From Candidatus Babeliales bacterium (lineage in GTDB: Bacteria; Babelota; Babeliae; Babelales; JANWKD01), in assembly GCA_963701665.1 (NCBI GenBank), contig OY969622.1:864001-928000 (forward strand): a DNA stretch of 64,000 bases, in the 5' to 3' direction. The translations under genes and the position numbers were made by a program. The notes beneath the pieces are model-generated. The model was not told the DNA's origin, did no database searches, and was given only the letters and a program-made list of their open reading frames with translations. Positions 10,936 through 63,904 of this stretch are shown here, piece after piece. Position 1 is the stretch's first letter. Each line of letters opens with the position of its first letter.

Positions 10936-12315
10936 ATGAAGAAACTATATCTCATAGCATTAGTATTTATTTCTTCCATCTCGAGTATGGAACAGCAGCC
11001 TTTGCTCGTTCAAGCACAGACTACCAATAAAATCATTGAAGATTACTATGGCAATAGATTTACTATTCCGGCATCATGCGTCGGTTTGGTCAAATTGTTT
11101 GATCATGCCAATATTTTTGAAAATGAATCGCCTATTGATTATGCTTTTTCAAAAAAGGAATTTGATTTTCAGTATGATGACGGACTACATGATAAGTTTA
11201 AAGCAGTAGATACATCCGCCCAACCCTTTTTTAGTTTTTTCGAACGTAAAGCAGGTGATGTACCACTTTCAAGAAAAATCTTAATCAATGCATTAACCTG
11301 CATTAAAAGACCTAGATACAGTTCTTATTATGAAAAAGATACTATCAAATCTGTTTTGGCTGCGATAAATTATCTTAGTCCCCAAAAAGAAAAAGTTCTG
11401 AAGAAATTTGTTCAACGAGCAAAAGAGATAATTCCTGAAGAAGAATTAGATAACGATGATCAAATCGATACTACTATTCTAAATGATTTTTATGGGATTG
11501 GTGCCGTTACGCGATTATTAAACCAAAATGATGTTCTTGTAAAATATGATGGTAACCTATGTTTCATAGACCTCTCCGGAAAATCACTTAATAATCTCAA
11601 TGGAATAGCAAAAATAAAGATCCTTAATGGCGCAAAGTGTTATCTTATTGATATTAGCAATAATAATCTGAAGGAACTTGATATAAATCGTCTTCTCAAA
11701 GAAATTCCTACATTAACTGGTCTAAACGCACCTACAGGTTTAAGCGCACCCACTGGGATAGCCGCACTCAATAATAAGATAACAAAAGTCATTTTCCCCC
11801 GATGTCCTTTACCCAGGGGACTGTGGATTGATTTAAATAAAAATAACATTACTAATCTGAAAGAGATGTATTTAAATATGGGATCTAAGATTGATCTAAG
11901 GAATAATCCTTTAACTGAAGATAGCCGCAAAAATGTAGAAAGAGCTTGTAAATTAGGCTTTCTATTAAGAAACAAATTTTGGTTACTGGATGGGACAAAA
12001 ACATGGGCTAACAATATTCCTGAAATCTTGTATTCAAGTGGGATAGCTGCGGCACTTGTTCCCGGAGTTTTTTATGGGGGCGCGATTATTACTAATTGGA
12101 GAGATGCAAATCTTTTACGCGAATCTGTAAATCTTTTATTTGATAAAGGCTTCTGGATAGTTAGTGCAGCATTTTCTGCCGTAGTATTTACCATAGGTTC
12201 AGTAGGTATTTCGACCCTCTCACTCCCGTGCCATATAGCTTATGGTCATTATAAAAGTTATTCTGATTTCCCCGAAGTTTTTTTACCTGAAAAAAACCCA
12301 ACAGAAAATAAGTAA
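10936..12315 (+). CDS. Secreted leucine-rich-repeat protein with C-terminal TM helices
   Basis: IDLSGKSLNNL, IDISNNNLKEL, IDLNKNNITNL, IDLRNNPL repeats; signal peptide followed by MEQQ. Confidence 0.7.
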   Translation: MKKLYLIALVFISSISSMEQQPLLVQAQTTNKIIEDYYGNRFTIPASCVGLVKLFDHANIFENESPIDYAFSKKEFDFQYDDGLHDKFKAVDTSAQPFFSFFERKAGDVPLSRKILINALTCIKRPRYSSYYEKDTIKSVLAAINYLSPQKEKVLKKFVQRAKEIIPEEELDNDDQIDTTILNDFYGIGAVTRLLNQNDVLVKYDGNLCFIDLSGKSLNNLNGIAKIKILNGAKCYLIDISNNNLKELDINRLLKEIPTLTGLNAPTGLSAPTGIAALNNKITKVIFPRCPLPRGLWIDLNKNNITNLKEMYLNMGSKIDLRNNPLTEDSRKNVERACKLGFLLRNKFWLLDGTKTWANNIPEILYSSGIAAALVPGVFYGGAIITNWRDANLLRESVNLLFDKGFWIVSAAFSAVVFTIGSVGISTLSLPCHIAYGHYKSYSDFPEVFLPEKNPTENK

Positions 12316-12319
12316 CATC

Positions 12320-14164
12320 TCACTCCACCGTCACTGATTTTGCCAAATTGCGCGGTTTATCGATAGGACAGCCAAGTTCTTTGGCAATTTGATAGACAAA
12401 GAATTGCATGAGCCCCGTCATGGCGAGTGGCGCAAGCAGTTTCGAAACGCGCGGAATAACAAATAATTGATCAGCTAATTGCATGAGCTCTTCTTGCCCC
12501 TCGAATGCAAAAATCACTAAATGGCCTTTGCGCGCTTTCACTTCTTGAGCGTTTGAAACCAATTTTGGATATACTAGTTCATCGAGACAAGAAAATAAAA
12601 AGATCGGCGTTTCAGCATCAATGAGCGCAATCGGCCCGTGTTTGAGCTCTCCTGCAGGATAACATTGCGCAAATATATAAGAAATTTCTTTAAGTTTTAG
12701 CGCCGATTCCATGGCAAATGGATAACTAATATGCCTGCCTAAAAAAATGCATCTTTTATATTCAGCATAACGAGGCGCGAGTGTTGAGATGATATCATCT
12801 TTATATAATTCGATCGCATCTTCAAGAACGTGTGCCGCAATAGCAAGATCTTGGCACGCGCGTTCAATTGCATCAGCAGGCAAAATACCTTTTTCAATAG
12901 CAATTTTATGCGCGAGCCAATATAAGGTAGCAAGTTGCGTGGAAAATGCTTTTGTTGACGCCACGGCAATCTCTTGCCCCGCGTGCGTTACTAAGTATCC
13001 GCCCGCTTCACGCGCAACGGTGCTTGATGCAACATTGGTGAGCCCAACGGTGTGTAATCCATGGCCATTAACCATGCGTAATGCTTCTAACGTATCAGCC
13101 GTTTCGCCAGATTGTGTAATGGCGACATATAACCCCTGTGTATCGGGAAAGAATGACATGAGACGAAATTCTGAAGCGAGTGCAACTTTGGTGGGAAGTT
13201 TGGTGATTTCTTCAAAAAAGAATTGCGCAATACGCGCGGCATGCCAGGAAGTTCCACAGCCAATGAGCGTTAAAGAGCTCATTTTTTTTATGTAATCTGC
13301 CGAAACTCCGAGATTTGACCATAAATTTTGGCCAAGAATCTGTAATGAAAGAATAGTTTTTTGTATGACTTGTTTTTGCTCATAAATCTCTTTGAGCATA
13401 AAATGCTCGAATCCCTTTTTTTCAATGTCAATCCAACTGGTATCAACTTCTTGCACAACAGTAGGTAAAGGTATGCCAGAAAAACTATACAGTTTTACTT
13501 CATCTTTTTTTAATAATGCATAGGAATTATTGGGCAAAAAAAGTACTTTATTTGTTTTATCGGCGAATGCTAATAAATCTGATGACACAAACATTTCATG
13601 CTCGCCCACGCCGACACATAAAGGCGAACCTCGGCGCGCAATCAAAAGTTGATCAGGAAAATCTTGGCATATGCAAACGAGTGCATAAGCGCCCTCGAGT
13701 CGGTTAACGAGTGCCTCAAATGCTTCTTTGATAGATTTTTTTTCTTGTAACAATGATTCTAAAAGATGCGCCACTACTTCCGTATCAGTTTGTGAAACGA
13801 ACACGTGACCTTGGGCATGCAATTCTTGTTTGAGCGCGCGATAATTTTCAATGATGCCGTTGTGAGCGAGGGAAATTTTTCTATGACAATCAAATTGTGG
13901 ATGAGCGTTTTCTTGTGAAATGGCCCCGTGCGTTGCCCAACGGGTATGGCCGATACCCAGATGACCATCGATGGGTGATGCTTCGAGACACTCAATGAGA
14001 TTTGCTAAATGCCCTGTTGTTTTATGAGAAAGGATGCATGAATGTGCATCATTAAGACATGAAAATCCTGCTGAATCATAGCCTCGATATTCTAGGCGCG
14101 ATAAGCCTTGGATAACATATCCTTTGCTCCAACCATGACCAATATATCCTGCCAAACCACACAT
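12320..14164 (-). CDS. glmS: Glutamine--fructose-6-phosphate aminotransferase
   Basis: MCG N-terminus, LEYRGYDSAG, GHTRWATHG, QSGETADT, PRNLAKSVTVE. Confidence 0.98.
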   Translation of the reverse strand: MCGLAGYIGHGWSKGYVIQGLSRLEYRGYDSAGFSCLNDAHSCILSHKTTGHLANLIECLEASPIDGHLGIGHTRWATHGAISQENAHPQFDCHRKISLAHNGIIENYRALKQELHAQGHVFVSQTDTEVVAHLLESLLQEKKSIKEAFEALVNRLEGAYALVCICQDFPDQLLIARRGSPLCVGVGEHEMFVSSDLLAFADKTNKVLFLPNNSYALLKKDEVKLYSFSGIPLPTVVQEVDTSWIDIEKKGFEHFMLKEIYEQKQVIQKTILSLQILGQNLWSNLGVSADYIKKMSSLTLIGCGTSWHAARIAQFFFEEITKLPTKVALASEFRLMSFFPDTQGLYVAITQSGETADTLEALRMVNGHGLHTVGLTNVASSTVAREAGGYLVTHAGQEIAVASTKAFSTQLATLYWLAHKIAIEKGILPADAIERACQDLAIAAHVLEDAIELYKDDIISTLAPRYAEYKRCIFLGRHISYPFAMESALKLKEISYIFAQCYPAGELKHGPIALIDAETPIFLFSCLDELVYPKLVSNAQEVKARKGHLVIFAFEGQEELMQLADQLFVIPRVSKLLAPLAMTGLMQFFVYQIAKELGCPIDKPRNLAKSVTVE

Positions 14165-14234
14165 GATGGCTACTCCCCTTTTGAGTTTTTCTTGGCTTAT
14201 ATGTTACCAAAAGGCAAGCAAGACGAAAACGTTT

Positions 14235-14699
14235 TTAACGTTTAACAAACTGGAATTTACGTCGCGCTGCTTTTTGACCAGGTTTTTTACGTTCCTTAAG
14301 GCGAGCATCAACTGTCAATAGACCTGCTGCACGTAATACTGCACGATCAGCTTCATTTAATTTGACTAGTGCACGTGCAATACCCAATTTTACAGCATCA
14401 GCTTGCGAATTAAGACCACCGCCATTTACATTGGCATGAGCATCATAATGTAATGCGCTGCTTAATACCACAAAAGGTTTGTGGGCACTGATACGAGCAA
14501 CATCAGTATCAAAATAAACTTCATAATTTTTATCATTGACTGTGATTTTGCCGGAACCACGTCGCAAATCAACGCGCGCAACAGAGCTTTTACGTCTGCC
14601 AACACCATGTGATAAAGGCGCAGTTTTTACCTGCTTTTGACGAGGTTTGCTTGATTCGGCTTTTTTGCTTGGTGCCTTAACTTTTTTTGTTTCTTCCAT
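14235..14699 (-). CDS. rpsI: 30S ribosomal protein S9
   Basis: GRRKSSVARV, GGGLNSQADA, ERKKPG...QFVKR. Confidence 0.96.
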   Translation of the reverse strand: MEETKKVKAPSKKAESSKPRQKQVKTAPLSHGVGRRKSSVARVDLRRGSGKITVNDKNYEVYFDTDVARISAHKPFVVLSSALHYDAHANVNGGGLNSQADAVKLGIARALVKLNEADRAVLRAAGLLTVDARLKERKKPGQKAARRKFQFVKR

Positions 14700-14860
14700 G
14701 AACAGTTTTTTAAAATCCTATTTTGAAAGGTTATTATTAATAAAAGTAATATATTTTATAATGCCAAAAATGAGGAAAATGTCAAAGTGATCTTTGACAT
14801 AAGAGAAGACCTATATTTTTTACAGTCTTCGTTTTATTTTTCTATTTATAACTTCCTGCA

Positions 14861-15007
14861 GGGCGAAGCCAGGCGTAGTTTGCCGAGCCTGAAGGCCCCT
14901 CCGTCGCTCATGAGCTATGGCGGGCTTCGCCGGATAAACGAAGACTGGCGAAGCCAATCGTAGCCAAGTAGTACATCGAAGTTTTTCCCCATGCAGGCGT
15001 AGATTGG
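14861..15007. repeat. GC-rich nested palindrome cluster abutting the tRNA-Thr 3' end
   Basis: ggcgaagcc...ggcttcgcc; ccgtcgctcatgagctatggcgg; ccaatcgtagcc...ggcgtagattgg. Confidence 0.55.
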
Positions 15008-16959: not shown

Positions 16960-19419
<2,460 letters not shown>

Positions 19420-19510: not shown

Positions 19511-20410
19511 ATGAGATCTCTTATTTACAAAAACTTAAGATTTTTATTAATTTTCATTACTTTTATTCCTATGCAAGCAATGGAAAAAAAATCACTAAAT
19601 ACGCCCCTTGATCAAGATAGAGCAATCACCGGATGTTTAACTGAACTCATAAACGATCACATTGATACAATCTTCAGCGAAAAACCAACTACAGTTAAAG
19701 ATGCCTTAATTAGAATTCAGTCCATTGCCAGAATAATCAAAACATCTCATCTCTATAGTGGTGATGCGGAGATTACCAAAGATGCACTCATCATTAATGG
19801 ACGTATTTTTCCCAATCACATACATCCTATTGTACCTCCAATTGCGGATCATTGGTCTAATATTATAGAGAACCCAGCGACACTTAATTCCCTGATCATT
19901 TCACATGAAAAATCAGTTGAAGCCATCAATATAATTCTTGGTACATTGCATAAAAAAGCTAACAATGAAAATGTTGAAATGTGCTATAAAGTAGTTAATA
20001 GTTTACCTCCTTGTGTAAGCGAACACATTAAATCTCAGTTTATTGCCAAGCATCCTTCAAGGAAGCATAATATTCTCTATAACTCAACTGGCACCATACA
20101 ACTCCTCCACTATAATAAAGATGGTTTGCTTATTGCAGCAAAACCAAATAAAAGCAGAATAGATATAGGAGTAGTATATAAGGATTTTTGCCATCAATAT
20201 AATGGTCCCCTTGATCGTGATTTCTCAAGTGCACTTCATAATTCACTTGGCCTTCTTAAGGCGCGAACTTTATATGATGTTTCAATAGAAACTATATTAA
20301 CACCGCCTTCTTTTGAAAAAAGATTAAAAAAACACGCGAAAAGAAATTCCAGACTTTTATCACAAAATGTTGAAGATAACGGGCAATTTGTTAAAAATCT
20401 CGATATTTAA
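19511..20410 (+). CDS. Secreted hypothetical protein (paralog family with 21103 and 22115), ending in a GyrB C-terminal 12-mer
   Basis: Signal peptide plus AMEKK; KPTTVKDALIRIQSIA resembles TPKTFYEAIVRLQCIA; ends [12 protein letters not shown]. Confidence 0.65.
   Translation: MRSLIYKNLRFLLIFITFIPMQAMEKKSLNTPLDQDRAITGCLTELINDHIDTIFSEKPTTVKDALIRIQSIARIIKTSHLYSGDAEITKDALIINGRIFPNHIHPIVPPIADHWSNIIENPATLNSLIISHEKSVEAINIILGTLHKKANNENVEMCYKVVNSLPPCVSEHIKSQFIAKHPSRKHNILYNSTGTIQLLHYNKDGLLIAAKPNKSRIDIGVVYKDFCHQYNGPLDRDFSSALHNSLGLLKARTLYDVSIETILTPPSFEKRLKKHAKRNSRLLSQNVEDNGQFVKNLDI
20372..20410 (+). repeat. Direct repeat of the gyrB 3' end (19381-19419)
   Basis: gaagataacgggcaatttgttaaaaatctcgatatttaa vs gaagataacggacagtttgttaaaaacttagatatttaa. 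Confidence 0.9.
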
Positions 20411-20970
20411 TTTTTTTCTAAAGATTTGGGCTGAAAATAATGGGTTATTTCACAAGAAGATTTGTTCAATTTTTGTCCTTTTAAGCAGAGCTGTGCTGTT
20501 ACCACATACATATCTTCTTGAGAAAGCAAATCATTATGGATAAAACAATTTTCACTAAGAGTTTTTGACCAAAACAAATTGTCACTTATTTCTTTTACTG
20601 TATATAAGTTAGTACCACTCGTAATACTAGGCAGACCTTCATAAAAAATGGCGCTAAAGCACAATAAACCGAAGAAACTTTTTTGATGCACAGGTTTAAT
20701 GTGTAAATTTTCTACTTTATACATCATTATGTCCTTAGAATCATAGTAGCGTTCTAAGGGTATCAGTGTTATTTCATCTAATGCCTGTCCTGATCGAAGA
20801 TTTAAAAGCTCTTTTTCATTATGGCTCAGCACCACATCATATTCACTTTCATTTGAAATAGAAGTAATACAAAAGCTGGGCGCTGCAAGCCTTGCTAAGC
20901 CGTTTTCCATGCTTTTGATACTAAAAAAACAGGTTATTACACCTAAAAATAGTAGCTTTTTGCCCACCAT
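20407..20970 (-). CDS. Secreted hypothetical protein
   Basis: 187-aa ORF, signal peptide followed by SMENG. Confidence 0.55.
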   Translation of the reverse strand: MVGKKLLFLGVITCFFSIKSMENGLARLAAPSFCITSISNESEYDVVLSHNEKELLNLRSGQALDEITLIPLERYYDSKDIMMYKVENLHIKPVHQKSFFGLLCFSAIFYEGLPSITSGTNLYTVKEISDNLFWSKTLSENCFIHNDLLSQEDMYVVTAQLCLKGQKLNKSSCEITHYFQPKSLEKN

Positions 20971-21102: not shown

Positions 21103-22101
21103 ATGAATAGAGTATTTACAGGCAAAATTATCACCTTACTTTTAGCATCATTTTTGTCCTTCGGACTTTCATATGGAATGGAAGAGAGTACTTCAGATGC
21201 CCTTAGTTCCTATAAAGAACCTGCTGCATTAAAAATTCCTCATAAAGGCAAAGATATCGTTGTTCTATTTAGAAATACTTTGCTTGAAGATCAAGAAATC
21301 ATTAAAGCTCTCTATTATGCTTTTAGTGATAAAATTAATAAAAAATTAACCTCAACGCCAAAAACTTTTTATGAAGCAATTGTACGCTTGCAGTGTATTG
21401 CAAAACTCCTTGAAAAATCGCTCATTAACCCGACAGCCTTAGGAAAAAATTTACACTTTACTTCCCATGAATGCCAAATAACCGTTGATGGCACAACTTA
21501 CACAATTCCTCACGATATGCTTCATCCAATTTTTAATGAGCTAATCAAAAAAGCTTGTCACAAAATTTTTCTTGAACATCCAAAATCACTACAAGCAATA
21601 GATATCATTCTTAATGAAATAAGCCAGAAGGTTACTCATCAAAATATGAAGAACTATCAAAAAGCAATCGAAGAGTTACCTAAAACGGTTTCACAATGCA
21701 TACAACAAGAATTCATTAACATGCATGGTTGGCCGCATGGTATTAAACCCGAATTTATAGTAGACCCGCAAGGAATACTATCATTAAGATTTGTTAACAA
21801 TGACCGCCTTATCACTTTTAAAAATGACTACATTATTTCGACCCCCCTCCCGTTTGAAGGCGGCTGGCGAAGTGCAGATTTGGTTAATGATAATTACTTT
21901 GACACAATTGCGTTCGTAGTTTGGAGACATCATAATGCAATGCAAGAAGATGGCACCTATCCATCATTATGGGAAGTGCCAACGTTTGCACAAGCATTAG
22001 AGAAAAGAGTACAAGAAAATGCTAAAACGTTATTAACCCGTATCAAAGAACATATATACCCTTTAATGATTGCATTTGACGACTTTATGGACAGGTTTTA
22101 A
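21103..22101 (+). CDS. Secreted hypothetical protein, tandem paralog
   Basis: Shares SYKEPA, LTSTPKTFYxAIVxLQCIAKLLEKS, HECQIT, IPHDxLHP, EHPKS with next ORF. Confidence 0.65.
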   Translation: MNRVFTGKIITLLLASFLSFGLSYGMEESTSDALSSYKEPAALKIPHKGKDIVVLFRNTLLEDQEIIKALYYAFSDKINKKLTSTPKTFYEAIVRLQCIAKLLEKSLINPTALGKNLHFTSHECQITVDGTTYTIPHDMLHPIFNELIKKACHKIFLEHPKSLQAIDIILNEISQKVTHQNMKNYQKAIEELPKTVSQCIQQEFINMHGWPHGIKPEFIVDPQGILSLRFVNNDRLITFKNDYIISTPLPFEGGWRSADLVNDNYFDTIAFVVWRHHNAMQEDGTYPSLWEVPTFAQALEKRVQENAKTLLTRIKEHIYPLMIAFDDFMDRF

Positions 22102-22114
22102 GATTGGTTATTTT

Positions 22115-23080
22115 ATGAAATTATTTAGAAAAATCTCTTTATCTTTATTTTTCGTAGCTTTTCTCTTTGGAAATACAATTCAATGTATGGAATCGCTTGG
22201 ATCCTACAAAGAACCTGCTGAGCTAAAGACGAGCTTTTCAGATCAAGATATTGTTGATTTAATCTATCATGATCTGAGCAATAAAATTAATGAAAGATTA
22301 ACGTCAACGCCTAAAACATTTTATGATGCAATTGTTTGCCTGCAGTGTATCGCAAAACTCCTTGAAAAGTCACAAATCACCTCGGAAGTTTTTGGTAAAA
22401 ATTTCATTATTACCCCTCACGAATGTCAAATAACTACTGACGAAATGTACTCAATCCCTCACGATATACTTCATCCGGTCTTCGATTCATGGTGTCAAAA
22501 AGCCCACACAAAAATATTTATAGAACATCCTAAATCAATGGCAGCAACCACTATAATTTTAAATGCATTAAGTAATAATGTAACCTTAGAAAACCTTGAA
22601 AAGTACCAAAGCGCTCTTGCAACCTTACCTCTAGAAGCAAAAAAATATATCGAAGAAAAATTTATTGAAAAGTATGGCTGGGAAATTAAAGATTTGGATA
22701 TTGAATTAGATAATAATGGAAATATTGCCGATATTCAGTTCACAATCGATAATTTTTTTGTTAAAGGTCGCACATCATTTGGCATGCCGCCCTCTGTGGC
22801 CATACTTGACATGTCAACCCTTGAATGCCTGTATTGTATCAGGTTACCTAACTTGGATTTATCTAGGGGAGTTTATTATGCTTTGGGCAGTTTCTTTGGT
22901 ATTCGTTTATCACAATCTGAGGTCGATTCGCTGCAAGATTTCCTTGCCACAAAACCAACATTCGAACAGGTGTTACTTAATCATGCGAAAAACCACAAAG
23001 GAACACTATTAACTCGCATTAAAATGAGCGCATATTATTTAACAACAGCTTTCACTAAATTACTTAAGGGACATTTATGA
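22115..23080 (+). CDS. Secreted hypothetical protein, tandem paralog
   Basis: See 21103; likely start MKLFRK; signal peptide followed by CMES. Confidence 0.65.
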   Translation: MKLFRKISLSLFFVAFLFGNTIQCMESLGSYKEPAELKTSFSDQDIVDLIYHDLSNKINERLTSTPKTFYDAIVCLQCIAKLLEKSQITSEVFGKNFIITPHECQITTDEMYSIPHDILHPVFDSWCQKAHTKIFIEHPKSMAATTIILNALSNNVTLENLEKYQSALATLPLEAKKYIEEKFIEKYGWEIKDLDIELDNNGNIADIQFTIDNFFVKGRTSFGMPPSVAILDMSTLECLYCIRLPNLDLSRGVYYALGSFFGIRLSQSEVDSLQDFLATKPTFEQVLLNHAKNHKGTLLTRIKMSAYYLTTAFTKLLKGHL

Positions 23081-24309
23081 AATTAGTTAACGAACAACCA
23101 CTTTTAAAAAGCTTCTTATTTGTGTTGGCATTGAGTGCAATAATTAATACACAGGCAATGGAAAAACAAGAAGAAGATTATCAATTAGCATCCCTATCAA
23201 TGGGCCAGACAATAGACATAGGCGAATTAACGGACGTTGTCGAAAATTTGCACGAGGCACACAAAGCACAAAATCGAGAACTTTTTGCAAATATTTTCCA
23301 ACATTTTACAGAAGATCTAAATCAAAAAGATCCCGTTGAACAATTAGCAACTTGGGTTGAAGCAACTAAAATAGCTGCTAAAAAAAGTAAACCGCTTACT
23401 CTCGCTTTTTGTGATAACCTTTTAAACATTTGCAATGCTTATCCGGACCTCTCAGAGATAACACCAGAAATAGTAAGACCACTCATCCCTAATTTACACA
23501 AAAATAAGCACCCCGAAGCAATTAAAAAAATTATTTGTATTTTTGCTAATAATGCTGACAGCGAAGAATATCATGCTATGCAAAGTAGCATACAGCATGG
23601 TTTGAATACTAGTACAACCCCAAGCATTGATAATGATGAAGCAATTGCACGCGCATACCAACAAGGCTCCCAACATATTAGCAATACAGAATATGATCTA
23701 GCATTAGCAAAAGCACTAGCCGCCAGTATGCAGATCAACGACAACAAAAATGCTGGTACATTGCAACCCAGTCCTCATTATCCTACTGGTTATAATGAAG
23801 ATTGGGCATTAGCACAAGCTCTAAGTGAAAGTGTGAAAGAAGTCAAATCAGAAAAACGCGCTTTCTTGGATCAACTGACAGATGAAGACTTGATCCAAGA
23901 GTCAGAACGTTTGAATACATCGAACCGACAATTACTTACAAACGTGCCAACTACATTTTATTCAGATTTGGATCAACTGACTGATGAAGAATTACTCCAA
24001 GAGGCAGACGATCTACTTACATCAAACCAAACATTATTAGAAGTACCTCCGGTCCCACCCGTCACCGTCACAGTTTATTCTGCTCCTCCTAAAGAAATAG
24101 AGGAATCAGACATACAAGAAGTACTCGCAGAAGGTATGCAATTTAACGCTCCTCCTCGTGAAGAAATAGCTGACCTTGAAGAGGAAGAGGATTTAAGTAT
24201 CGCGATCGAAGAAAGCCTACAAAGCCCTTCTACAAACGATACGCTATCATTCCTGAGAAGAATCCGTGATAATTTACGTGATAATTTAATCGGAGGCTTT
24301 GGTAGTTAA
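23077..24309 (+). CDS. Secreted acidic protein with multiple ubiquitin-interacting-motif-like helices
   Basis: EYDLALAKALAASMQ, NEDWALAQALSESVKE, EEEEDLSIAIEESLQS; duplicated LDQLTDExLxQE repeat. Confidence 0.65.
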   Translation: MKLVNEQPLLKSFLFVLALSAIINTQAMEKQEEDYQLASLSMGQTIDIGELTDVVENLHEAHKAQNRELFANIFQHFTEDLNQKDPVEQLATWVEATKIAAKKSKPLTLAFCDNLLNICNAYPDLSEITPEIVRPLIPNLHKNKHPEAIKKIICIFANNADSEEYHAMQSSIQHGLNTSTTPSIDNDEAIARAYQQGSQHISNTEYDLALAKALAASMQINDNKNAGTLQPSPHYPTGYNEDWALAQALSESVKEVKSEKRAFLDQLTDEDLIQESERLNTSNRQLLTNVPTTFYSDLDQLTDEELLQEADDLLTSNQTLLEVPPVPPVTVTVYSAPPKEIEESDIQEVLAEGMQFNAPPREEIADLEEEEDLSIAIEESLQSPSTNDTLSFLRRIRDNLRDNLIGGFGS

Positions 24310-38938: not shown

Positions 38939-40471
38939 ATGAAAAAATTCCTTGTCCTTTTTGCCCCCCTATTTTTCGTAACTCTACCCCTACAAAGTAT
39001 GCATAGTGATGGTATTCAAAAATCATCGATTTCTTGGTTAATACACCGTGCTGAAAAGAACCCTTATACCATAGCAACTCTATCTATAGGAGCTGCACTG
39101 GGTGGTTATTGGTATGCCACTAATGATTATGAAGATCGTTGGAACTGGGATGAAATTATCATTGGAGACCTGATCTTCCCTAAAGACTTTAAATGGGGTT
39201 CTGCAAATTCCTGTTTACAGGTTGCCGGGACAAAAACATGGTGGGGCGATGTACAAAATAACTGGACAAAATACCAACAAGAAAAAAATATCCCTGTAGA
39301 AAAACATATGGGACATGCCGCAGGCCATTGGAAAAAAGAAATATACCAAAAAGATTTTATGTTAGCGCATGAATTTGGCCTTAACACACATCGTTTCTCT
39401 ATTGAATGGAGCAAAATTCAACCACATTTCAAAGGTCATTTTGATACACTTGCGATGCAACATTACATAGAATACGTACAAGATATGATTGATGCCGAAT
39501 TAGAGCCTATGCCGACATTATTCCACCACTCATGGCCATTGTGGTTTGATGAACTCGGTGCTTTTGAAAAAGCGGAGAATATCGAGCATTTTGTGCGCTT
39601 TGCAACGTATGTTTTTGAAGCATTCAAAAAGGCTGGGCTACTTGAAAAAACGAAATTATGGCTTACGTTCAATGAGCCTGCAGGCTATGCCGCAGGTGCC
39701 TATATTGATGGTAGATACCCACCTAACAAAAGATTTGCTGTGGGGCTCTGTGGTGAAGTATTAAAAAATATGCTCGATGCTCATTGCAAAATCTATGACG
39801 AATTCAAATCGCGTGATAACAGTATACAAATAAGTCTCGCTCATGCATTTGTTCCCATACAACCTTTCAACCCCTGGAATCCATTCGATAAATTTGTTTC
39901 CAGTGTTTTCAATCATTTAGTTAATACTGTTACGCTTGAATATCTTTCTACCGGAAAGTTTAAGTGGTTATATAAGAACACAGAAAATCCGAAAGCATGC
40001 AATAAACTCGATTTCATTGGTGTAAATTATTATAGCCATACCCTTCTTGGATGGTTCAAAGAAAGAAATAGACCCAACACAATTACCGCCGATCCTGTTG
40101 AAGGAAAGAAAGCAAAAGCTGTTTATGCTGAAGGTTTTTATCAGGCATTAAAAAAAGTTACTGAATATTTCCCCCATAAAGCAATTTTTATCACAGAAAA
40201 CGGTTTTGCAACTGATAATGCCGAACACCGAAAACTGTATATTGATCGCCATCTTTACGTATTAAAAAAATTGATTGATGAGGGCACTGAGATTATCGGT
40301 TATTTATGGTGGACTTTAACGGATTGTTATAGTTGGGGTAAAGGAAACTGCAGCAAACACGGTTTATATGAAGTCGATTTTAAGCACTCATCATTACCGC
40401 GAAAATTAAAACCAAGTTCAAGACATTTACAAAATATCATCAAGCACAATCACGAACATTACCAACAGTAA
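38939..40471 (+). CDS. Glycoside hydrolase family 1 with signal peptide and TM segment
   Basis: FPKDFKWG, RFSIEWSKI, TFNEP (acid/base), ITENG (nucleophile). Confidence 0.92.
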   Translation: MKKFLVLFAPLFFVTLPLQSMHSDGIQKSSISWLIHRAEKNPYTIATLSIGAALGGYWYATNDYEDRWNWDEIIIGDLIFPKDFKWGSANSCLQVAGTKTWWGDVQNNWTKYQQEKNIPVEKHMGHAAGHWKKEIYQKDFMLAHEFGLNTHRFSIEWSKIQPHFKGHFDTLAMQHYIEYVQDMIDAELEPMPTLFHHSWPLWFDELGAFEKAENIEHFVRFATYVFEAFKKAGLLEKTKLWLTFNEPAGYAAGAYIDGRYPPNKRFAVGLCGEVLKNMLDAHCKIYDEFKSRDNSIQISLAHAFVPIQPFNPWNPFDKFVSSVFNHLVNTVTLEYLSTGKFKWLYKNTENPKACNKLDFIGVNYYSHTLLGWFKERNRPNTITADPVEGKKAKAVYAEGFYQALKKVTEYFPHKAIFITENGFATDNAEHRKLYIDRHLYVLKKLIDEGTEIIGYLWWTLTDCYSWGKGNCSKHGLYEVDFKHSSLPRKLKPSSRHLQNIIKHNHEHYQQ

Positions 40472-42769: not shown

Positions 42770-43282
42770 TTACTTACCATTTGACGTTGGTTCGTGACGC
42801 AAATCCCGGATAGCGTTAGTCAGACCTACAATAAGCGCCGCAGTATCAGGTTTTTGGCAAAGATAAAATAAGGCAAGGCCTACTACCGCACTTCCAAATC
42901 CCGCGGCAGCCCAAATGCCGTGATCGAGCCATTGAGCCGTCATATGTTCTTTTTTTTCGCCAGCTACAGCACCTTTTAGCAGTTTTTCATCACGAAGTGC
43001 CTGCTGTGCAGTAGTCCAATCTTCTCGCGCAACTGACTCATCTTTGATTTCGCTCATCTTACCAAGTGCGTTGCCATGATCTGCAAATTCTTTTGCAACT
43101 TCTTCAATATTCCCCCTTTGATAAGAATCAAATAATGTTGTTGCAGTTTTTTTAGGAGGCACTACAACTTTTGCATCATGTTCATTAATTTTATCAGAAA
43201 ATGGTTGCTCCATTTTTGCGCTCATACCACTCATACTATTAAGAAACATCAAGCACAATAAGCTTATAGATATTTTTTTCAT
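42770..43282 (-). CDS. Hypothetical secreted/membrane protein
   Basis: Signal peptide, C-terminal TM. Confidence 0.5.
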   Translation of the reverse strand: MKKISISLLCLMFLNSMSGMSAKMEQPFSDKINEHDAKVVVPPKKTATTLFDSYQRGNIEEVAKEFADHGNALGKMSEIKDESVAREDWTTAQQALRDEKLLKGAVAGEKKEHMTAQWLDHGIWAAAGFGSAVVGLALFYLCQKPDTAALIVGLTNAIRDLRHEPTSNGK

Positions 43283-43399: not shown

Positions 43400-44581
43400 T
43401 TAGCACAGAACGCGTGCGACTTCTTCTAAGCTAACAACGCCCGTTTGCAATTTTTCGCGCGCGTCAACAATCAAGGGACTCATGCCGTCAGTGAGGGCTT
43501 GCTGTTGAATAGCCTCAAAATGAGGGTTACTAACGATTAGAGCACGTAATGAGTTGGTCACAACTAAGAGTTCAAAAATTCCTATGCGCCCTTTATATCC
43601 TAAATTGAAACAGTCAGCGCAGCCTGCGCCTTTAAATATTTTTTTCATGGAAACATTGAGGCGCTCAAGCAGTTTATTGTGTTGATCGGTTGGCTCAATT
43701 TCTATGCGACAATTGGTACAAATTTTTCTCACTAACCGTTGTGCAAGAACACCCGTTAGCGACGTGTTAATTAAGAATGGCTCTATCGCCATATCCATCA
43801 AACGCATAACCGTTGAGGCAGCATCATTAGTGTGAAGCGTACTGAGCACTAAATGGCCCGTTAATGATGCTTCAATAGCAATACGCGCTGTTTGTTTATC
43901 ACGAATTTCACCGATCATGGCAATATCTGGATCCTGACGCAGCAATGCGCGAATACCACGCTCAAAAGTAAAACCAGCTTCAGGATGAATTTGGCCTTGT
44001 GTAATACCATCAATATTATATTCCACCGGATCTTCTAACGTGATTATATTTTTTTCAGACGAGTGCAACGCAAATAAGGTTGCATATAAGGTGGTTGTTT
44101 TACCTGATCCGGTTGGCCCCGTTACTAAAAAAAATCCCTGCGAGCGTTGCATCAGATGACAATAGCGTTCAAAAACCGCAGACTGAAAACCAAGCTTTTC
44201 TAAAGAAATAGATAAATTGGTTCTATCAAGGATTCTGATAACTATTTTTTCACCATAAATCGAGGGAAATGTTGAAACGCGCAAATCAACCATCTTGTGC
44301 GCCCATTTCATTTGAAATTTGCCATCTTGAGGCACTCGTTTTTCAGCAATATTATTATGAGCAAGAATTTTAATACGAGAGATTACCTGCGCGGCATGCA
44401 TGGCCTCTATGGGCTGTTGATCGTACAACGTACCATCAATTCTATAACGCACGCGCGCACCAGTATGATGAGATTCTAAATGGATGTCAGATGCGTTACG
44501 TTCTAACGCTTTGACCAAAATATCATTAACAAGATCAACAACCGATAAGGCTACAAGAGATTGTCGTTGTCGCTCTAACAT
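43400..44581 (-). CDS. GspE/PilB family secretion/pilus ATPase (lacks N-terminal domain)
   Basis: ASDIHLE, GPTGSGKTTT, LEDPVE, LRQDPD, TGHLVLSTLHTN, CxxC...CxxC. Confidence 0.93.
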   Translation of the reverse strand: MLERQRQSLVALSVVDLVNDILVKALERNASDIHLESHHTGARVRYRIDGTLYDQQPIEAMHAAQVISRIKILAHNNIAEKRVPQDGKFQMKWAHKMVDLRVSTFPSIYGEKIVIRILDRTNLSISLEKLGFQSAVFERYCHLMQRSQGFFLVTGPTGSGKTTTLYATLFALHSSEKNIITLEDPVEYNIDGITQGQIHPEAGFTFERGIRALLRQDPDIAMIGEIRDKQTARIAIEASLTGHLVLSTLHTNDAASTVMRLMDMAIEPFLINTSLTGVLAQRLVRKICTNCRIEIEPTDQHNKLLERLNVSMKKIFKGAGCADCFNLGYKGRIGIFELLVVTNSLRALIVSNPHFEAIQQQALTDGMSPLIVDAREKLQTGVVSLEEVARVLC

Positions 44582-44584: not shown

Positions 44585-45136
44585 TTATTCTTCTTCATTA
44601 TCAAGTTCGTGCTTTTCTTCATTGAGCGCACGCTTCTCATTTTCCTCTTCCTCATCCATATAATCAAAATTATCGGTAACTTCAATTGAAGCATCATAAA
44701 ATTCATCAACAGCTTCTTGTATATCTTCACCAATACCGACTAAAAATTGAATATCAGATGACATGTAATTACCTATTGCTGGCAAAAGATTTTCATCAGC
44801 AGGATTTGCTGCAACAACATACAGCATATTGTCATTAATCTCTTGCAACGGGATAATTTCATTGCGCATAAGAAAATCACGCGGAAATTTGATCACCAAA
44901 TCATGATCAAAAAAATGGCCAATAACATCAAATGGAGGCACATGATAATACTGGCTCAATGCTTTAAGTAAATTTTGCTTCGCAACAAGTCCTTCTTGCA
45001 ACAAGAAATTATCGAACTCATCCTCAGATTCTTGCGCGAACAGTTTTTTTGAATCTTTAGATTCTTGCTGGGTAAAAGCACCATTTTTTTCTAAAATAGC
45101 GCACAGATCATTGATAAACTTCTCACCTTTTCTCAT
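44585..45136 (-). CDS. Stand-alone GspE/PilB N-terminal domain protein
   Basis: FLLQEGLV..LLKALSQYYHVP, IIPL...LYVVAANP (T2SSE_N-like); adjacent and in frame with the ATPase. Confidence 0.7.
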   Translation of the reverse strand: MRKGEKFINDLCAILEKNGAFTQQESKDSKKLFAQESEDEFDNFLLQEGLVAKQNLLKALSQYYHVPPFDVIGHFFDHDLVIKFPRDFLMRNEIIPLQEINDNMLYVVAANPADENLLPAIGNYMSSDIQFLVGIGEDIQEAVDEFYDASIEVTDNFDYMDEEEENEKRALNEEKHELDNEEE

Positions 45137-47618: not shown

Positions 47619-48491
47619 TCAATACATCCAATGCAAACATCTACGCCAGCGAACATGCCTCCAAAAATCAATAGGATGTTTTATGAAATCTAGTATCATC
47701 CACGATGCATGCGTATCAACTGACCATATTCGTAGAATAATTTTTCCATGAATTAATTTTCTAGCAAGAGGTCCCCAAAAGCGTGAATCAAGGCTTCCCA
47801 ATCGATTATCACCCATTGCCCAATATTGATCAGGCCCAAGATGAATATCAAATTCATCAACATTTCTGCCATGCTGATCAAATGCTGGCGTACGCGGAAA
47901 GCGCATTATATCTTGTTTATAGGTTTCTGCCCATCGTTTTCCAAGTTGCACATCAGCAGAAGACATTCTATAAAATGGCTGATCTTCATACGAATAACTT
48001 TGATCATATGACACGGTCAACAAACAATTACCATAAAACACACTTAAAAGGGGAAATTTATTAAGATATGGTTCATCTAATTTCTCACCATTACGATATA
48101 AAACCGGAATACCATTCTCAATTTTGCCTTGAATGTAATCGCCAGGAACCCCAATTATGCGCTTTGTCCAATTAGCTGGTCCCCAAACATTATTTTGAAA
48201 AAGATTAACAAAATAATTGTCCGAGTAATCAAAATTTGGATCATTGAATGTTACTATATCACCATGTTTAATCGGTCTAAAAAGATAAGAAAATTTATCT
48301 GCAAAAAACCCTTCACCAACAAGCATTGTTGTTTCCATTGAACCAGTTGGCACTTGATAAAGTCCATAGATATACGTACGAATTAAGAAAGCAAGCGGCA
48401 GAATAATAATGATAGATTCAATATACTGTTCTAGTTTTGATTTATTAGGACGCTTATACCATGCATGTAATCTTTGGAACGTGTGAATCAT
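47619..48491 (-). CDS. lepB: Signal peptidase I, copy 2
   Basis: VPTGSMETT, WTKRIIGVPGD, MGDNRLGSLDSRFWG. Confidence 0.93.
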   Translation of the reverse strand: MIHTFQRLHAWYKRPNKSKLEQYIESIIIILPLAFLIRTYIYGLYQVPTGSMETTMLVGEGFFADKFSYLFRPIKHGDIVTFNDPNFDYSDNYFVNLFQNNVWGPANWTKRIIGVPGDYIQGKIENGIPVLYRNGEKLDEPYLNKFPLLSVFYGNCLLTVSYDQSYSYEDQPFYRMSSADVQLGKRWAETYKQDIMRFPRTPAFDQHGRNVDEFDIHLGPDQYWAMGDNRLGSLDSRFWGPLARKLIHGKIILRIWSVDTHASWMILDFIKHPIDFWRHVRWRRCLHWMY

Positions 48492-48536: not shown

Positions 48537-49409
48537 TTATCTAACAACCTGTAAAAATCTACCCCAACGAATTCTTTTCCAAAAATCGATGGGATGCTTT
48601 AATAAATCAAAAATAAGCCACGACTCAGAACTATCAATTGACCATATTCTAAAAACAATTTTTCCATGAATTAATTTTCCATCGAATGGTCCTAGAAAAC
48701 GAGAATCTTTGCTACCGAGACGATTGTCGCCCATACACCAATATTGATTTGGCCCCAAACGTACGTCATAGATATCAACATTTCTCCCATGATGATCAAA
48801 CGAGGGCGTTCCCGGCATTAAAAGCCATTCTTGACCGTGCATTTCTGCCCATCGTTTTCCAAGCAATGCTTCATAGTCAGTAAAATTATAAAATGGTTGA
48901 TCATTATAAGGCCGTGATGGATCGTATGAACGTGGTGATTGGATACGACTATCTTTAACTACGGTAATCAAAGGATACTTGTTCAGGTATGGTTCATCCA
49001 ATTTTTGGCCATTGCGATACACTACCGGAACCCCATCCTCAATCTTACCTTCAATATGATCTCCAGGAACACCGATAACGCGTTTAGTCCAATTGGTTGG
49101 TCCCCATACATAATGTTCGAATAATTCCTTCCAATAATTATCTGAATATGCAAACGTTGGATCGTTTAATGCAATAATGTCACCATGTTTTATAGGGAAA
49201 AATAATGGCGTAAATTTATCAGAAAAAAAACCTTCACCAACTAATATCGTTGTTTCCATTGAACCGGTGGGAACTTTATAAAGACCATACCCAAACGTTC
49301 TAATCAGAAATGCTATCGGCACGATGATAATTAACGTTTCAACATATTCAGCGATAATTGATTTGTTAGGCCTTTTACGCCAATGTAGATACTTTTGAAC
49401 TAATGTCAT
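48537..49409 (-). CDS. lepB: Signal peptidase I, copy 1
   Basis: VPTGSMETT, WTKRVIGVPGD, MGDNRLGSKDSR. Confidence 0.93.
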   Translation of the reverse strand: MTLVQKYLHWRKRPNKSIIAEYVETLIIIVPIAFLIRTFGYGLYKVPTGSMETTILVGEGFFSDKFTPLFFPIKHGDIIALNDPTFAYSDNYWKELFEHYVWGPTNWTKRVIGVPGDHIEGKIEDGVPVVYRNGQKLDEPYLNKYPLITVVKDSRIQSPRSYDPSRPYNDQPFYNFTDYEALLGKRWAEMHGQEWLLMPGTPSFDHHGRNVDIYDVRLGPNQYWCMGDNRLGSKDSRFLGPFDGKLIHGKIVFRIWSIDSSESWLIFDLLKHPIDFWKRIRWGRFLQVVR

Positions 49410-60674: not shown

Positions 60675-62422
60675 TTAAGCAAAAAAGGTATCGCTGACTT
60701 CTTCTCGGGTTCATTTTTTTTTGAAGCGCCATCGATCAACTTTTTTCTTTTTGTTGCTTCAATTGTCGTATTACCATTTGATGGCTCGGGTAACTTTCTC
60801 TTTAAAGGATCGAGGATTGGATTCTGTTTATCCTGTTCATCACCGCTCTTGTTAATTCTTACCCGACCATTTGATGTTTTTTCTTTCTCTGAATCTTCTC
60901 TGGTTAAATCTCTAGGCAACTCATCTGTGATCAAATCTATGACTTTGTTCTCAATATTCTCTCTACATTCTAATTGAAAAGCTTTTGCAAGCTCTGGGAA
61001 TCGAATAAAAAGAATTTGCATGCATTTCTCTCTTTCACTTTCATCATCCAATAAAGAGAAATGCTTACCAAAATAGTGCTTTAACCGCCCAAATTCAGCA
61101 GTACTTAACCATTGGTCTATTGGAATTTGTTTTATCTTGTCATACAAAGACTTTATTTCGAATGCCGAGCTGATAAACTCAGAAAAGTTACTACAACTAC
61201 TGAAAGTTCTCGCATACACTATATGACTGTTCATTATTTTAATCCATTCAAGAGTCCGTTGATGTTGTTCAATGCTATGCCGCGTCCTTAGCTTTGTATG
61301 CTTTAAACAATCCAGCAGTTTTTCTTCCATACTAGTAACTTTTTTTGTATCCTTTAAATCCTCTCCTATTTCCTGTCTCAGGTGTTTGAGTTTTTTTTGA
61401 ATAATAGTATCCCATATTTCTGCAGCAGCTTTATTTAGTTTGCCAGGATCTTCTTGGTCGTCTTTATATACGAGATTACATGTTGACGTCCACATATCTA
61501 AAACTTTATTCATTTCTTCTTCTCTGCCGCATCTGGAATAAAGAAATGCAAATGTATAATAATCATTGGCCAATTTTAATAATAATTCTTTTTTTTCTTC
61601 TCCAGAACGAATCATCTCTAATAATGTTTTTGCCGAATTATTATAGGATGTCCAAAGAAAATGAGTCGAAAGGGCAGATGGTATATTTCCTGTTGAAGCT
61701 ACAGTACCCTTTAATTTTATAAAGCTTTCATGCAATTGCATATTACAAGTAATAAAATGGATTGGATCTTCTATGTTCTTATATTTTTTCGAAGATTTAA
61801 TACTTCTACTCACATTTTTAAACCAGCCTATTTGAGCGGCAATTTTTTGCTTATCAACTGGCATCCATTTATTCTGTATAACATAATCTGCTTTTTCTTC
61901 TGCCTCTTTCAATTCATTCTTTTCTAACAAGGCGATTACATCGCGCCGAATTTCTCCTAAATTGTTATCTACAACTTTTTGCCAAAGATCTTCCGCGAGC
62001 GTTCGATAATTCATTGTTGTTGGAAATGCATAAAGATAGCATGAGACAAAATCCTCAAATATCTTTTTGGGTTCATCTACAAGTCCCTTTACCACCAATA
62101 AGCGAGACAATTGATAAAAATCACGGCTTAATTCTGATAAGTAACGTTCTTTTTTATAGTTAGAAGACGCTTCTAATAACTCTCTTATATCAACCAGATT
62201 GTTTATCCAAAAATATTCTTTTGAAATATCAAAATAATTTAAGATTTCTGGAGATTTTTCTATATCTAAGCTAGAAATATAGCCTATCAAACCATTTCTT
62301 CTTATTTGAATGTCCTGAAGCATCTCCTGGACAGAACGCGGAAAATTGGATACCAATTTCTGTTCCATAGCGTACAGGTTAAAAAAAATTAATAACAGGC
62401 AAACAGTATATATGTTTCTCAT
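60671..62422 (-). CDS. Secreted helical hypothetical protein with C-terminal NLS-like motif
   Basis: Signal peptide followed by AMEQK; internal helical repeat; LKRKLP...TKRKKL. Confidence 0.6.
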   Translation of the reverse strand: MRNIYTVCLLLIFFNLYAMEQKLVSNFPRSVQEMLQDIQIRRNGLIGYISSLDIEKSPEILNYFDISKEYFWINNLVDIRELLEASSNYKKERYLSELSRDFYQLSRLLVVKGLVDEPKKIFEDFVSCYLYAFPTTMNYRTLAEDLWQKVVDNNLGEIRRDVIALLEKNELKEAEEKADYVIQNKWMPVDKQKIAAQIGWFKNVSRSIKSSKKYKNIEDPIHFITCNMQLHESFIKLKGTVASTGNIPSALSTHFLWTSYNNSAKTLLEMIRSGEEKKELLLKLANDYYTFAFLYSRCGREEEMNKVLDMWTSTCNLVYKDDQEDPGKLNKAAAEIWDTIIQKKLKHLRQEIGEDLKDTKKVTSMEEKLLDCLKHTKLRTRHSIEQHQRTLEWIKIMNSHIVYARTFSSCSNFSEFISSAFEIKSLYDKIKQIPIDQWLSTAEFGRLKHYFGKHFSLLDDESEREKCMQILFIRFPELAKAFQLECRENIENKVIDLITDELPRDLTREDSEKEKTSNGRVRINKSGDEQDKQNPILDPLKRKLPEPSNGNTTIEATKRKKLIDGASKKNEPEKKSAIPFLLN

Positions 62423-63195: not shown

Positions 63196-63269
63196 AGTAT
63201 TACTATTGCACAGGATTTTTTTTTAGCGTACTATTTAGACAACACTACTTTCGCATCATAAGGATTTTC

Positions 63270-63557
63270 ATGTATTCAAAACTTATTTTTGCCGCTCTTA
63301 GCTGTTTGTTAATTGTTCAATCTAGTCATGCGATGCGCAAACGCCCAAAAGCAACTGATGATTCACAAGAAATTACAAACCCCATGCATAAACCAGTATT
63401 ACCTTCTCAGGAACTCATTGATTGCAAAACAGAAATGAAAAAAATCGATAAAGAGTGGTTTAAGCATATGACAAATATAGGGTGTCTAGATTGCTGTTGC
63501 TCTACACTATTCGGCACATTAATATATTTTAGCAATATTGATGGAGTTCCACAGTAA
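63270..63557 (+). CDS. Small secreted protein with Cys-rich C-terminal hydrophobic segment
   Basis: AAGGA RBS; signal peptide followed by AMRKRPK; CLDCCC. Confidence 0.55.
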   Translation: MYSKLIFAALSCLLIVQSSHAMRKRPKATDDSQEITNPMHKPVLPSQELIDCKTEMKKIDKEWFKHMTNIGCLDCCCSTLFGTLIYFSNIDGVPQ

Positions 63558-63577
63558 ATTAAAACATAGGGACAATA

Positions 63578-63904
63578 ATGATTAAAAAATTTACTGCGAT
63601 TTTGCTTTTACTATTTTTTACCCATTCCGCTATGGGTATGAAAAAATCTAACATCAGAAAGCGTTCACCTTTACGTGTTACATTTGCCGAGGAAGAAAAT
63701 AATCAGACTAAAAACGCCACTCCAATTTTCTTTTCTGAACCAAAAAAGAAAATTGAAAACGGCCCGTGTCCGCCGCTTTTTTGCATTTTTTGTTCAAATT
63801 GTATGGTGGCAGGAGCTTGCTCTCTTGCCTTAGCAGCTGTTGTATATTTTGCTGATCCAGAGGCTGTATCTCAACCATATGAATATGTTAATAAAACCAC
63901 ATAA
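63578..63904 (+). CDS. Small secreted protein with RVxF-like motif and Cys-rich TM
   Basis: Signal peptide followed by GMKK; RVTF; CPPLFCIFCSNC followed by hydrophobic helix. Confidence 0.55.
   Translation: MIKKFTAILLLLFFTHSAMGMKKSNIRKRSPLRVTFAEEENNQTKNATPIFFSEPKKKIENGPCPPLFCIFCSNCMVAGACSLALAAVVYFADPEAVSQPYEYVNKTT

Follow-up and report, generated by a model that had tools for sequence, protein, structure and literature searches.

The stretch of DNA considered here (the window) comprises 64,000 nucleotides, i.e., positions 864,001 to 928,000 of contig OY969622.1 (assembly GCA_963701665.1), from a Candidatus Babeliales bacterium, a member of a lineage of parasites of protists. The source genome (G000) is a single contig of 1,337,192 bases with 37% G+C. 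In the window, thirteen genes encode proteins with a short leader that ends in a small residue followed by methionine (Met), and the same region harbors a tandem pair of genes for signal peptidase I (LepB) and a second, split paralogue of the GspE/PilB-type ATPase (Table 1). A first-pass annotation of the window interpreted this signature as the mark of a candidate dedicated effector export and maturation system, in which processing exposes an N-terminal Met that acts as a sorting tag or as protection in the host cytosol. As judged from the sequences, Met at this position is restricted to orphan proteins and proteins with eukaryote-like domains, is conserved, and is not an internal translation start.

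The gene set of G000 contains 1274 genes, called with a codon-pair score, from which leader-like N-termini were selected with Met scored as neutral, yielding 461 signal-peptide-like proteins. The cleavage-site model was trained blind to the first residue after the site (+1) and to any Met, and all sites given below are predictions of this model rather than of SignalP. Two versions were used, i.e., one restricted to positions upstream of the site and a full model that adds positions +2 to +5. After 29 lipobox-like leaders had been set aside, 433 leaders were scored; rescoring of all 461 proteins gave 134 with Met at +1. The non-cytoplasmic leaders number 447 (134 Met and 313 other), while 14 mis-called cytoplasmic proteins were kept apart. 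A relaxed site rule refers to a small residue, Met and a polar residue near the predicted site. The Pfam scan covered the first 750 residues of 460 of the 461 proteins (E<=1e-6, or 0.01 in one batch), the one protein outside the scan was counted as an orphan, and classes were assigned by hand. Whole-proteome counts refer to G000. Its relatives were retrieved through its LepB and sampled in part, i.e., 1.07 of ~1.5 Mb for G001 (same genus as G000), 160 kb each for G009 and G016, 80 kb for G006, 60 kb for G014, 36 kb for G083 and 20 kb each for G007 and G038.

All thirteen small residue-Met junctions of the first-pass annotation are present in the sequence; the full model places Met at +1 in each of them and the upstream-only model in ten. 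Least secure are the sites of the genes at 21103 and 63578 and that of 43282, where the leader contains four Met. The carriers were described as coming from several unrelated families and indeed form ten; the genes at 19511, 21103 and 22115, as well as those at 35321 and 37070, are paralogous. The claimed lack of Met in envelope proteins was confirmed for CtpA, FKBP, rhodanese, BatC and BatD and applies likewise to the envelope class genome-wide. The eukaryote-like modules (UIM, LRR, WD40-like and RVxF) assigned to the carriers are weakly supported. The protein encoded at 23077 has three UIM-like matches to a regular expression and none in a Pfam UIM search at E<=1, while that at 35321 has weak WD40-type matches with a best E of 0.0025. 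The LRR claim for the protein at 62422 found no support, and an ESM Atlas search with it gave no usable match; for the protein at 10936 the ESM Atlas offered a weak lead. RVxF-type matches are not enriched on carriers (0.65 vs 0.68 per 1000 residues), nor are matches to the UIM expression. The protein at 38939 is, according to the Pfam scan, an ordinary GH1 glycosidase. The window also contains three tRNA genes (15008-15080, 46090-46173 and 46208-46278), all on the reverse strand. A look-up of positions 19400-24400 listed no RNA holder.

Table 1. Leaders and candidate machinery in the window (positions of the window; hyphens mark predicted cleavage sites; aa, amino acids)
Feature	Positions	Strand	Remark
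ISS-MEQQ leader to +1 Met codon, 459-aa orphan	10936..10989	+	weak BTB/LRR look-alike (0.82)
MQA-MEKK leader to +1 Met, 299-aa orphan	19511..19582	+	paralogue of 21103, 22115
IKS-MENG leader to +1 Met, 187-aa orphan	20908..20970	-	Met kept in G001 orthologue
SYG-MEES leader to +1 Met, 332-aa orphan	21103..21180	+	Met kept in G001 orthologue
IQC-MESL leader to +1 Met, 321-aa orphan	22115..22189	+	paralogue of 19511, 21103
TQA-MEKQ leader to +1 Met, 410-aa protein, three UIM-like motifs	23077..23160	+	no Pfam UIM match
LQA-MEQQ leader to +1 Met, 564-aa protein	35321..35374	+	weak WD40-type matches
LQA-MEEQ leader to +1 Met, 547-aa tandem paralogue of 35321, 68% identity	37070..37123	+	
LQS-MHSD leader to +1 Met, GH1 glycosidase	38939..39001	+	G001 orthologue without Met
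Leader of 170-aa protein, hydrophobic C-terminal stretch	43223..43282	-	Met site ambiguous: MSG-MSAK or later Met; posterior 0.32-0.40
LYA-MEQK leader to +1 Met, 583-aa orphan	62366..62422	-	
SHA-MRKRPK leader to +1 Met, 95-aa orphan with basic cluster	63270..63335	+	
AMG-MKKS leader to +1 Met, 108-aa orphan with RVTF motif	63578..63640	+	
GspE/PilB-type ATPase without N-domain, second split paralogue, candidate export motor	43400..44581	-	
Stand-alone MshEN/GspE N-domain gene, partner of split ATPase	44585..45136	-	
LepB tandem copy 2	47619..48491	-	
LepB tandem copy 1	48537..49409	-	62% identical to copy 2

At +1 of the leaders in G000, Met occurs more often than any other residue (134 of 461; the background in protein bodies is 1.9% Met). 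Among the 433 leaders, Met is found at +1 in 92 with the upstream-only model and in 125 with the full model, and at neighboring offsets in 6-26, i.e., the Met enrichment around the cleavage site that the first-pass annotation proposed to test is present genome-wide in a model that is blind to Met. The leaders have the Sec-type arrangement of ~15-30 residues, with a basic n-region, a hydrophobic h-region and a polar c-region, and a median length of 21 in both the Met and non-Met classes. Position -1 is occupied by Ala, Ser, Gly or Cys in 125 of 134 Met leaders, in agreement with the signal peptidase I rule, and position -3 mostly by Leu (54), followed by Ser, Thr, Val, Ile and Ala, as in the non-Met leaders of G000. 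The predicted cleavage before the +1 Met would be carried out by the general LepB.

The distribution of Met over functional classes is uneven. In G000, Met is found at +1 in 17 of 31 ankyrin proteins, 8 of 18 other eukaryote-like proteins (i.e., 25 of 49 proteins with eukaryote-like domains together) and 107 of 319 orphans, and in 2 of 49 other enzymes, none of 30 envelope proteins and none of the 14 mis-called cytoplasmic proteins. With the relaxed rule, the carriers are 20 ankyrin, 9 other eukaryote-like, 124 orphan, 5 other enzyme and 0 envelope proteins, and include all six WD40 and all three DnaJ-domain proteins. The latter three exported proteins (L043:16712, L044:19 and L083:9646) are possible mimics of host Hsp70 co-chaperones.

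The residue that follows Met is also biased. In G000, position +2 is Glu, Asp, Asn or Gln in 110 of 134 Met leaders compared to 120 of 313 other leaders, a small residue in 12 of 134 compared to 131 of 313, and a bulky residue in 3 of 134 compared to 37 of 313. The upstream-only model, which is blind to +2, yields the same tendency (Glu, Asp, Asn or Gln in 68 of 92 vs 95 of 341), and in G001 the corresponding numbers are 114 of 133 for the acidic and amide residues, 10 for small and 1 for bulky residues. Met-Gly ends are rare (3 each in G000 and G001). In G000, Glu follows Met in 53% of cases and Gln and Asp in 13% each, while residue 2 of ordinary genes is mainly Lys, Asn, Ile or Ser (Lys 20%, Asn 12%, Glu 4%). 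According to excerpts of PMC11735805, methionine aminopeptidase trims Met solely before small residues, unacetylated Gly, Ala, Ser, Thr or Cys ends and Met-hydrophobic ends are degrons, the Arg/N-degron pathway is fed by basic, bulky, acidic and amide first residues, and signal peptidases produce targets of this pathway. Because these rules spare Met followed by a large polar residue, such an end would avoid each of the listed degradation routes. The same excerpts describe NatB as acting co-translationally, which makes NatB acetylation of the Met carriers doubtful.

Comparison with G001 gave 184 reciprocal best hits within the 1.07 Mb sampled, 32 of which are Met carriers. Among the 29 carrier orthologues aligned (median identity 36%), 20 share the Met, whereas identity at other positions of the pairs is 21-31% from -8 to -2, 40% at -1 and 50% at +2, and deeper Met residues are identical in 22 of 107 cases. 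Hence, Met is the best-kept position of the junction region while the leader turns over. When Met status was called independently in G001, 22 of 26 orthologues keep Met (30 of 34 with the relaxed rule); the relaxed rule also identifies 8 orthologue pairs with Met in G001 only, and in total 12 of 143 pairs differ in Met status.

A second motif, at the opposite end of the proteins, is linked to Met. A C-terminal CaaX prenylation motif (Cys-x-aliphatic-X) is found in 7 of 164 relaxed-class Met carriers of G000, among them L040:15939 and L072:51, and in none of 283 other leaders; in G001 the numbers are 6 of 164 and none of 239. The single CaaX among the 796 other genes of G000 belongs to a Met carrier that was missed by the filter and has Skp1/POZ and WD40 matches, and the single CaaX among 143 leaders of loci L002-L030 is also on a Met carrier. 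All 15 CaaX proteins found are thus Met carriers (shifted controls, 0-1), and several of the motifs are preceded by basic or Cys-rich stretches. No CaaX was found among 126 leaders of G009, G016, G006 and G014, and as a DNA pattern the motif has too high a background for scanning other lineages. Host farnesylation of the CaaX effector AnkB is described in excerpts of PMC11323580, and the CaaX motifs point to delivery of Met carriers to the host cytosol. The carrier with the Skp1/POZ-like N-domain, WD40 repeats and CaaX (L073:17267-18571, reverse strand; G000 C1:822565) resembles a membrane-anchored mimic of a ubiquitin-ligase adaptor.

Across the phylum, a leader-plus-[AG]-Met-[ED] DNA pattern was found in 137 of 214 genomes, with 549 matches compared to 5 for the reversed control; among the matches listed, 129 of 150 are in frame. 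For a start-free pattern, which over-counts in its reverse column, the forward column alone was used. Met leaders account for 133 of 403 leaders in G001, 2 of 16 in G014 and 15 of 143 in L002-L030. The balance between Met and the corresponding Ser-[ED] pattern varies among families, i.e., 78 vs 4 matches in f11, 28 vs 9 in f1, 8 vs 25 in f6 and 13 vs 37 in f13 (the Ser count of f13 omits one genome, and the two patterns differ in degeneracy). In f6 and f13, Ser-Asp/Glu after the leader thus outnumbers Met, and in an Ala-Gln ankyrin array of G083 one paralogue has Met-Gln. Ala and Ser are the usual bacterial +1 residues, and because of this the preference for them in some families is not proof of a second solution.

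Taken together, these data suggest the following sequence of events. Unrelated, fast-evolving non-envelope proteins carry a conserved junction composed of leader, small residue, Met and acidic or amide residue, where cleavage by the general LepB would expose Met. The products would pass the outer membrane via type II-like secretin systems or vesicles, a route suggested because no match to FHIPEP, VirB4 or VipB, i.e., markers of type III, IV and VI systems, was found in G000 (93.6% complete). The CaaX motifs and eukaryote-like domains suggest that the carriers then act in the host cytosol, where Met followed by a large polar residue would escape methionine aminopeptidase and the Met-hydrophobic degron, such that host quality control would select for this end. 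We consider it quite probable that these steps hold jointly up to action in the host cytosol and, with comparable confidence, that the rule is a genuine feature under selection and distinguishes a class of likely host-cytosol effectors. For the whole chain, in which a normal signal peptidase I cut leaves a Met-acidic end that is selected by host N-terminal quality control, we lean only cautiously towards acceptance; the ends would then likely mimic a native eukaryotic N-terminus in the host cytosol and thereby escape N-terminal degradation signals. Of the two functions that the first-pass annotation offered for the exposed Met, protection fits the +2 spectrum best, but the second LepB envisaged as dedicated machinery is unsupported (see below).

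Dependentiae/Babelota are obligate parasites of protists for which no injection system is known. According to excerpts of PMC6561590, signal peptides are present on as much as 44% of their proteins, so that effectors are indistinguishable from envelope proteins. With the Met rule, likely host-cytosol effectors (~130-165 in G000) could be recognized from the sequence by a simple marker, backed by CaaX as an independent motif. More generally, it suggests that host N-terminal quality control shapes positions +1 and +2 of Sec-exported effectors proteome-wide.

A number of observations weigh against this interpretation. With the relaxed rule, 11 of 31 ankyrin proteins lack Met, as do exported UCH, RING, DOT1, MavL-like and Macro proteins that appear host-directed (L093:2022, L093:5873, L068:13992, L048:14223 and L084:2869, respectively), and the first residue of non-Met eukaryote-like proteins is stabilizing in just 12 of 24. 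The repeat in related genomes proposed in the first-pass annotation gave a divided outcome: the rule is strong in G001 and, by pattern, present across the phylum, but weak in G009 (1 of 46), G016 (0 of 48) and G006 (0 of 16), +1 spectra and CaaX in weak-rule families being under-sampled. The ankyrin array of G083 (L176-L177), largely one paralogue family, comprises 15 proteins with leaders, of which one carries Met and the majority Ala. None of the thirteen window carriers has a CaaX motif, the CaaX pattern was fixed after Cys at -4 had been viewed (the plain count is 16 of 267 vs 17 of 583, p 0.036), and several of the G000 and G001 CaaX matches are orthologues of each other. An enrichment of basic clusters after the site in G000 (16 of 134 vs 14 of 313) was not repeated in G001 (13 of 133 vs 18 of 270). 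Not only is NatB co-translational, but unacetylated NatB-type ends may be UBR targets, and thus possibly degraded, in fly and mouse (PMC11735805, excerpts), and the degron rules were derived from yeast, animals and plants, while the hosts here are protists.

The alternative that survives best is that Met(-Glu), once exposed, serves as a sorting tag recognized in the periplasm by one of two type II-like systems, likely that driven by the split GspE, which sends the tagged proteins into the host; we regard it as unlikely, albeit worth serious consideration. The type II-like components encoded in G000 are two secretins, two GspE/PilB and two GspF, which provide secretin, ATPase and GspF in two complete sets, along with five N-methyl pilins (scores are below the NCBIfam equivalog cut-offs, and secretins were scanned as the first 750 residues), in agreement with excerpts of PMC4776705. 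The split ATPase is an open frame of ~400 residues in most relatives, and its short form occurs across most Babeliales. It lies near LepB in 19 of 30 LepB-centered loci (9 loci are short or have another context); L007 and L026, where MshEN is kept and the ATPase alone is missing, have 0 of 10 Met leaders each. Of the 169 genomes that have a second GspE, 61 show a strong rule, compared to 2 of the 44 that lack it, these two exceptions being fragmented assemblies. In this coding, three-match genomes were counted as two and second matches were not each confirmed as the split form; G095 (no match) was dropped, G057 (one match, of the split type) counted as present and G087 (two weak pieces) as absent. 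The presence of Met on every CaaX protein is also what a strict tag would give.

However, 27 of the 44 genomes without a second GspE represent two families and thus provide few contrasts, 56 of the 169 with it have a weak rule, and the difference becomes smaller (p 0.04) when genomes of <=1.2 Mb are compared. A second GspE was not detected in G067 (6 contigs, 93% complete), which has two Met-bearing ankyrin proteins, or in G082 (7 contigs), where Met orphans are present, and the neighborhood of the split GspE is a general housekeeping cluster (Bat, HU and Suf). Furthermore, type II systems are known to read folded surfaces rather than linear tags. The split GspE is consequently a lead that is neither sufficient nor strictly required for the rule. 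A more elaborate version of the tag, with two parallel type II-like machines, in which the split, MshEN-regulated ATPase reads a linear Met-Glu tag and injects several hundred effectors while the tag doubles as a host-type N-terminus, is rather more doubtful still; if so, type II secretion would here use a linear sorting signal and take over the role of type III/IV injection.

Other candidate components do not separate the lineages with the rule. The number of secretins was rejected as a separator (at least two in 41 of 41 relatives), and the duplicated LepB, which the first-pass annotation named as candidate machinery, was rejected as a dedicated peptidase because G014 and G032 have one LepB match each and 11 and 14 pattern matches, respectively. 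Two very long secretins (open frames of 975 and 1052 residues) are encoded ~5 kb apart at L031:7514-9763 and 12808-15057, and some deeper-branching families have a third, shorter secretin. Near the split ATPase, a FUN14-family membrane protein (window 45146-45565, reverse strand) retains its position between HU and MshEN in many relatives, and a nucleotidyltransferase-like pair, named from its sequence (window 46876-47615, reverse strand), lies between LepB and the rhodanese gene in G000 and L001 only among 30 loci.

That Met serves a modification or protection on the bacterial side, i.e., acetylation by a signal-anchored RimI-like GNAT or resistance to periplasmic aminopeptidases, is improbable. 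Such a GNAT is encoded in G000 (L039:9604-10185, reverse strand; C1:162570-163151); it is predicted to face outward, has a conserved DWYWLV motif and weak similarity to RimI/NAT, and is present in 26 of 41 relatives. The Bacteroidetes Q-rule also offers an example of a +1 rule that stabilizes exported proteins (PMC10653852, excerpts). However, G009, G016 and G006 encode the GNAT but lack the rule, while a search with this query did not detect it in f7, f12, f15 and f20, families with in-frame Met leaders; its distribution does not fit that expected for the enzyme of the rule. Periplasmic protection should also cover envelope proteins, yet none of the 30 has Met, and no periplasmic source of acetyl-CoA is known. 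A second GNAT, with a cleavable leader and weakly similar to serotonin N-acetyltransferase and GCN5, is encoded at L053:14656-15156 (forward strand).

It is likewise improbable that Met is a functionless relic, either an old start codon behind an added leader or part of a cassette spread by duplication or recombination. The carriers are young and often found in tandem; within the portion of G001 that was sampled, orthologues were found for 32 of 134 carriers, compared to 140 of 313 other leaders. However, the carriers comprise 100 families, 78 of which are singletons, and between families the leaders show 15.5% identity compared to 14.2% for controls (4 of 8735 pairs at >=60%), i.e., they are no more alike than control leaders. 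A vestigial start was rejected because the +2 spectrum differs from that of residue 2 of genes (Glu 53% vs 4%) and Met is conserved while the leader turns over, by which this reading is largely refuted; Ala and Met moreover alternate at +1 within one paralogue family, and orthologue pairs differ in Met status as noted above. The Met leaders of a tandem array at G001 C6:349268-360769, which comprises at least 13 genes, are almost identical.

Finally, a true or alternative translation start at the inner Met, giving a cytoplasmic form, is very improbable even though Met is the start residue and not all annotated starts are secure. Of the 134 carriers, 81 have a ribosome-binding site (duplex energy <= -4 kcal/mol) ahead of the first ATG and 1 has it ahead of the inner ATG, a rate below that for deep internal Met (153 of 2032; fractions were compared, one mean energy, 741, being an artefact of an empty upstream stretch), and the upstream stretch is open, charged and then hydrophobic, of normal length, mostly in frame in the listed phylum matches and kept in orthologues. 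Neither of the two findings by which the first-pass annotation would have been refuted, i.e., a lack of Met enrichment relative to other secreted proteins or an inner Met that is the true start, was thus obtained.

With respect to known systems, the Plasmodium PEXEL motif (RxL-xE/Q/D, cleaved and acetylated, with Arg at -3 and Leu at -1) is similar in that a processed N-terminus with an acidic or amide second residue marks host-targeted proteins. The Babeliales junctions lack Arg-x-Leu, follow signal peptidase I rules with a small residue at -1 and an aliphatic or small residue at -3, and have +1 fixed as Met. The NatB consensus is Met-Asp/Glu/Asn/Gln, which is matched by 110 of 134 predicted ends in G000 and 114 of 133 in G001. 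Actin is an example of such an N-terminus (PMC11735805, excerpts), but NatB works at the ribosome while the Babeliales ends would arise by proteolysis in the bacterium.

Phytoplasmas have no outer membrane, and their SAP54/PHYL1 proteins (SVM leader, PF12113) are Sec-secreted host-cell effectors in which the leader ends with a small residue followed by Met-Asp/Asn, a possible parallel. In a search that covered 12 of the 26 supplementary files of PMC8026896, two four-letter terms of this type from SAP54 homologues occur 14 and 5 times in file 5, and SAP11 has Ser rather than Met. SVM is one leader family, whereas the Babeliales leaders are mutually unrelated, and membership in PF12113 was rejected (best score 14.5 bits vs a cut-off of 22.4). 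Listeria LLO and ActA are named as N-end-rule substrates in titles cited in PMC6160973; as proposed here, what becomes of the protein in the host cytosol depends on the residue that signal peptidase exposes, but these are single proteins, while the Babeliales feature is proteome-wide, involves ~100 families and suggests that degradation is avoided. Type II effectors of amoeba-associated bacteria and TM6 share Sec leaders on most ankyrin proteins and two gspD copies (excerpts of PMC4776705, PMC6561590 and PMC11323580), but in Babeliales MshEN and the motor of the second ATPase are encoded by separate genes, and a +1 bias is not mentioned in these excerpts.

A literature search, which covered neither subscription papers nor bioRxiv supplements, found no description of the Met bias; a rust-fungus preprint (10.1101/2024.07.01.601607) was rejected as a precedent because it describes charge signatures rather than Met, and the word "methionine" is absent from the excerpts of PMC5837995. 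The link of the +1 Met with CaaX is new here, and the nearest known case of such a bias is the Bacteroidetes Q-rule. In the latter, Gln at +1 of signal peptidase I substrates is cyclized by glutaminyl cyclase (PMC5837995, excerpts), and both rules amount to a preference, at phylum level, for a single residue directly behind the signal peptidase I site, tied to the stability of exported proteins (excerpts of PMC5837995 and PMC10653852). Membership in the Q-rule fails, with Gln at +1 in 24 of 447 non-cytoplasmic leaders compared to 134 of 447 for Met, and with Met in none of 30 envelope proteins and 2 of 49 other enzymes. In Babeliales the residue is instead Met with an acidic or amide +2, it is found in ~29% of leaders with envelope proteins excluded and is patchy across families, and no modifying enzyme tracks with it, the signal-anchored GNAT being present but mismatched in distribution.

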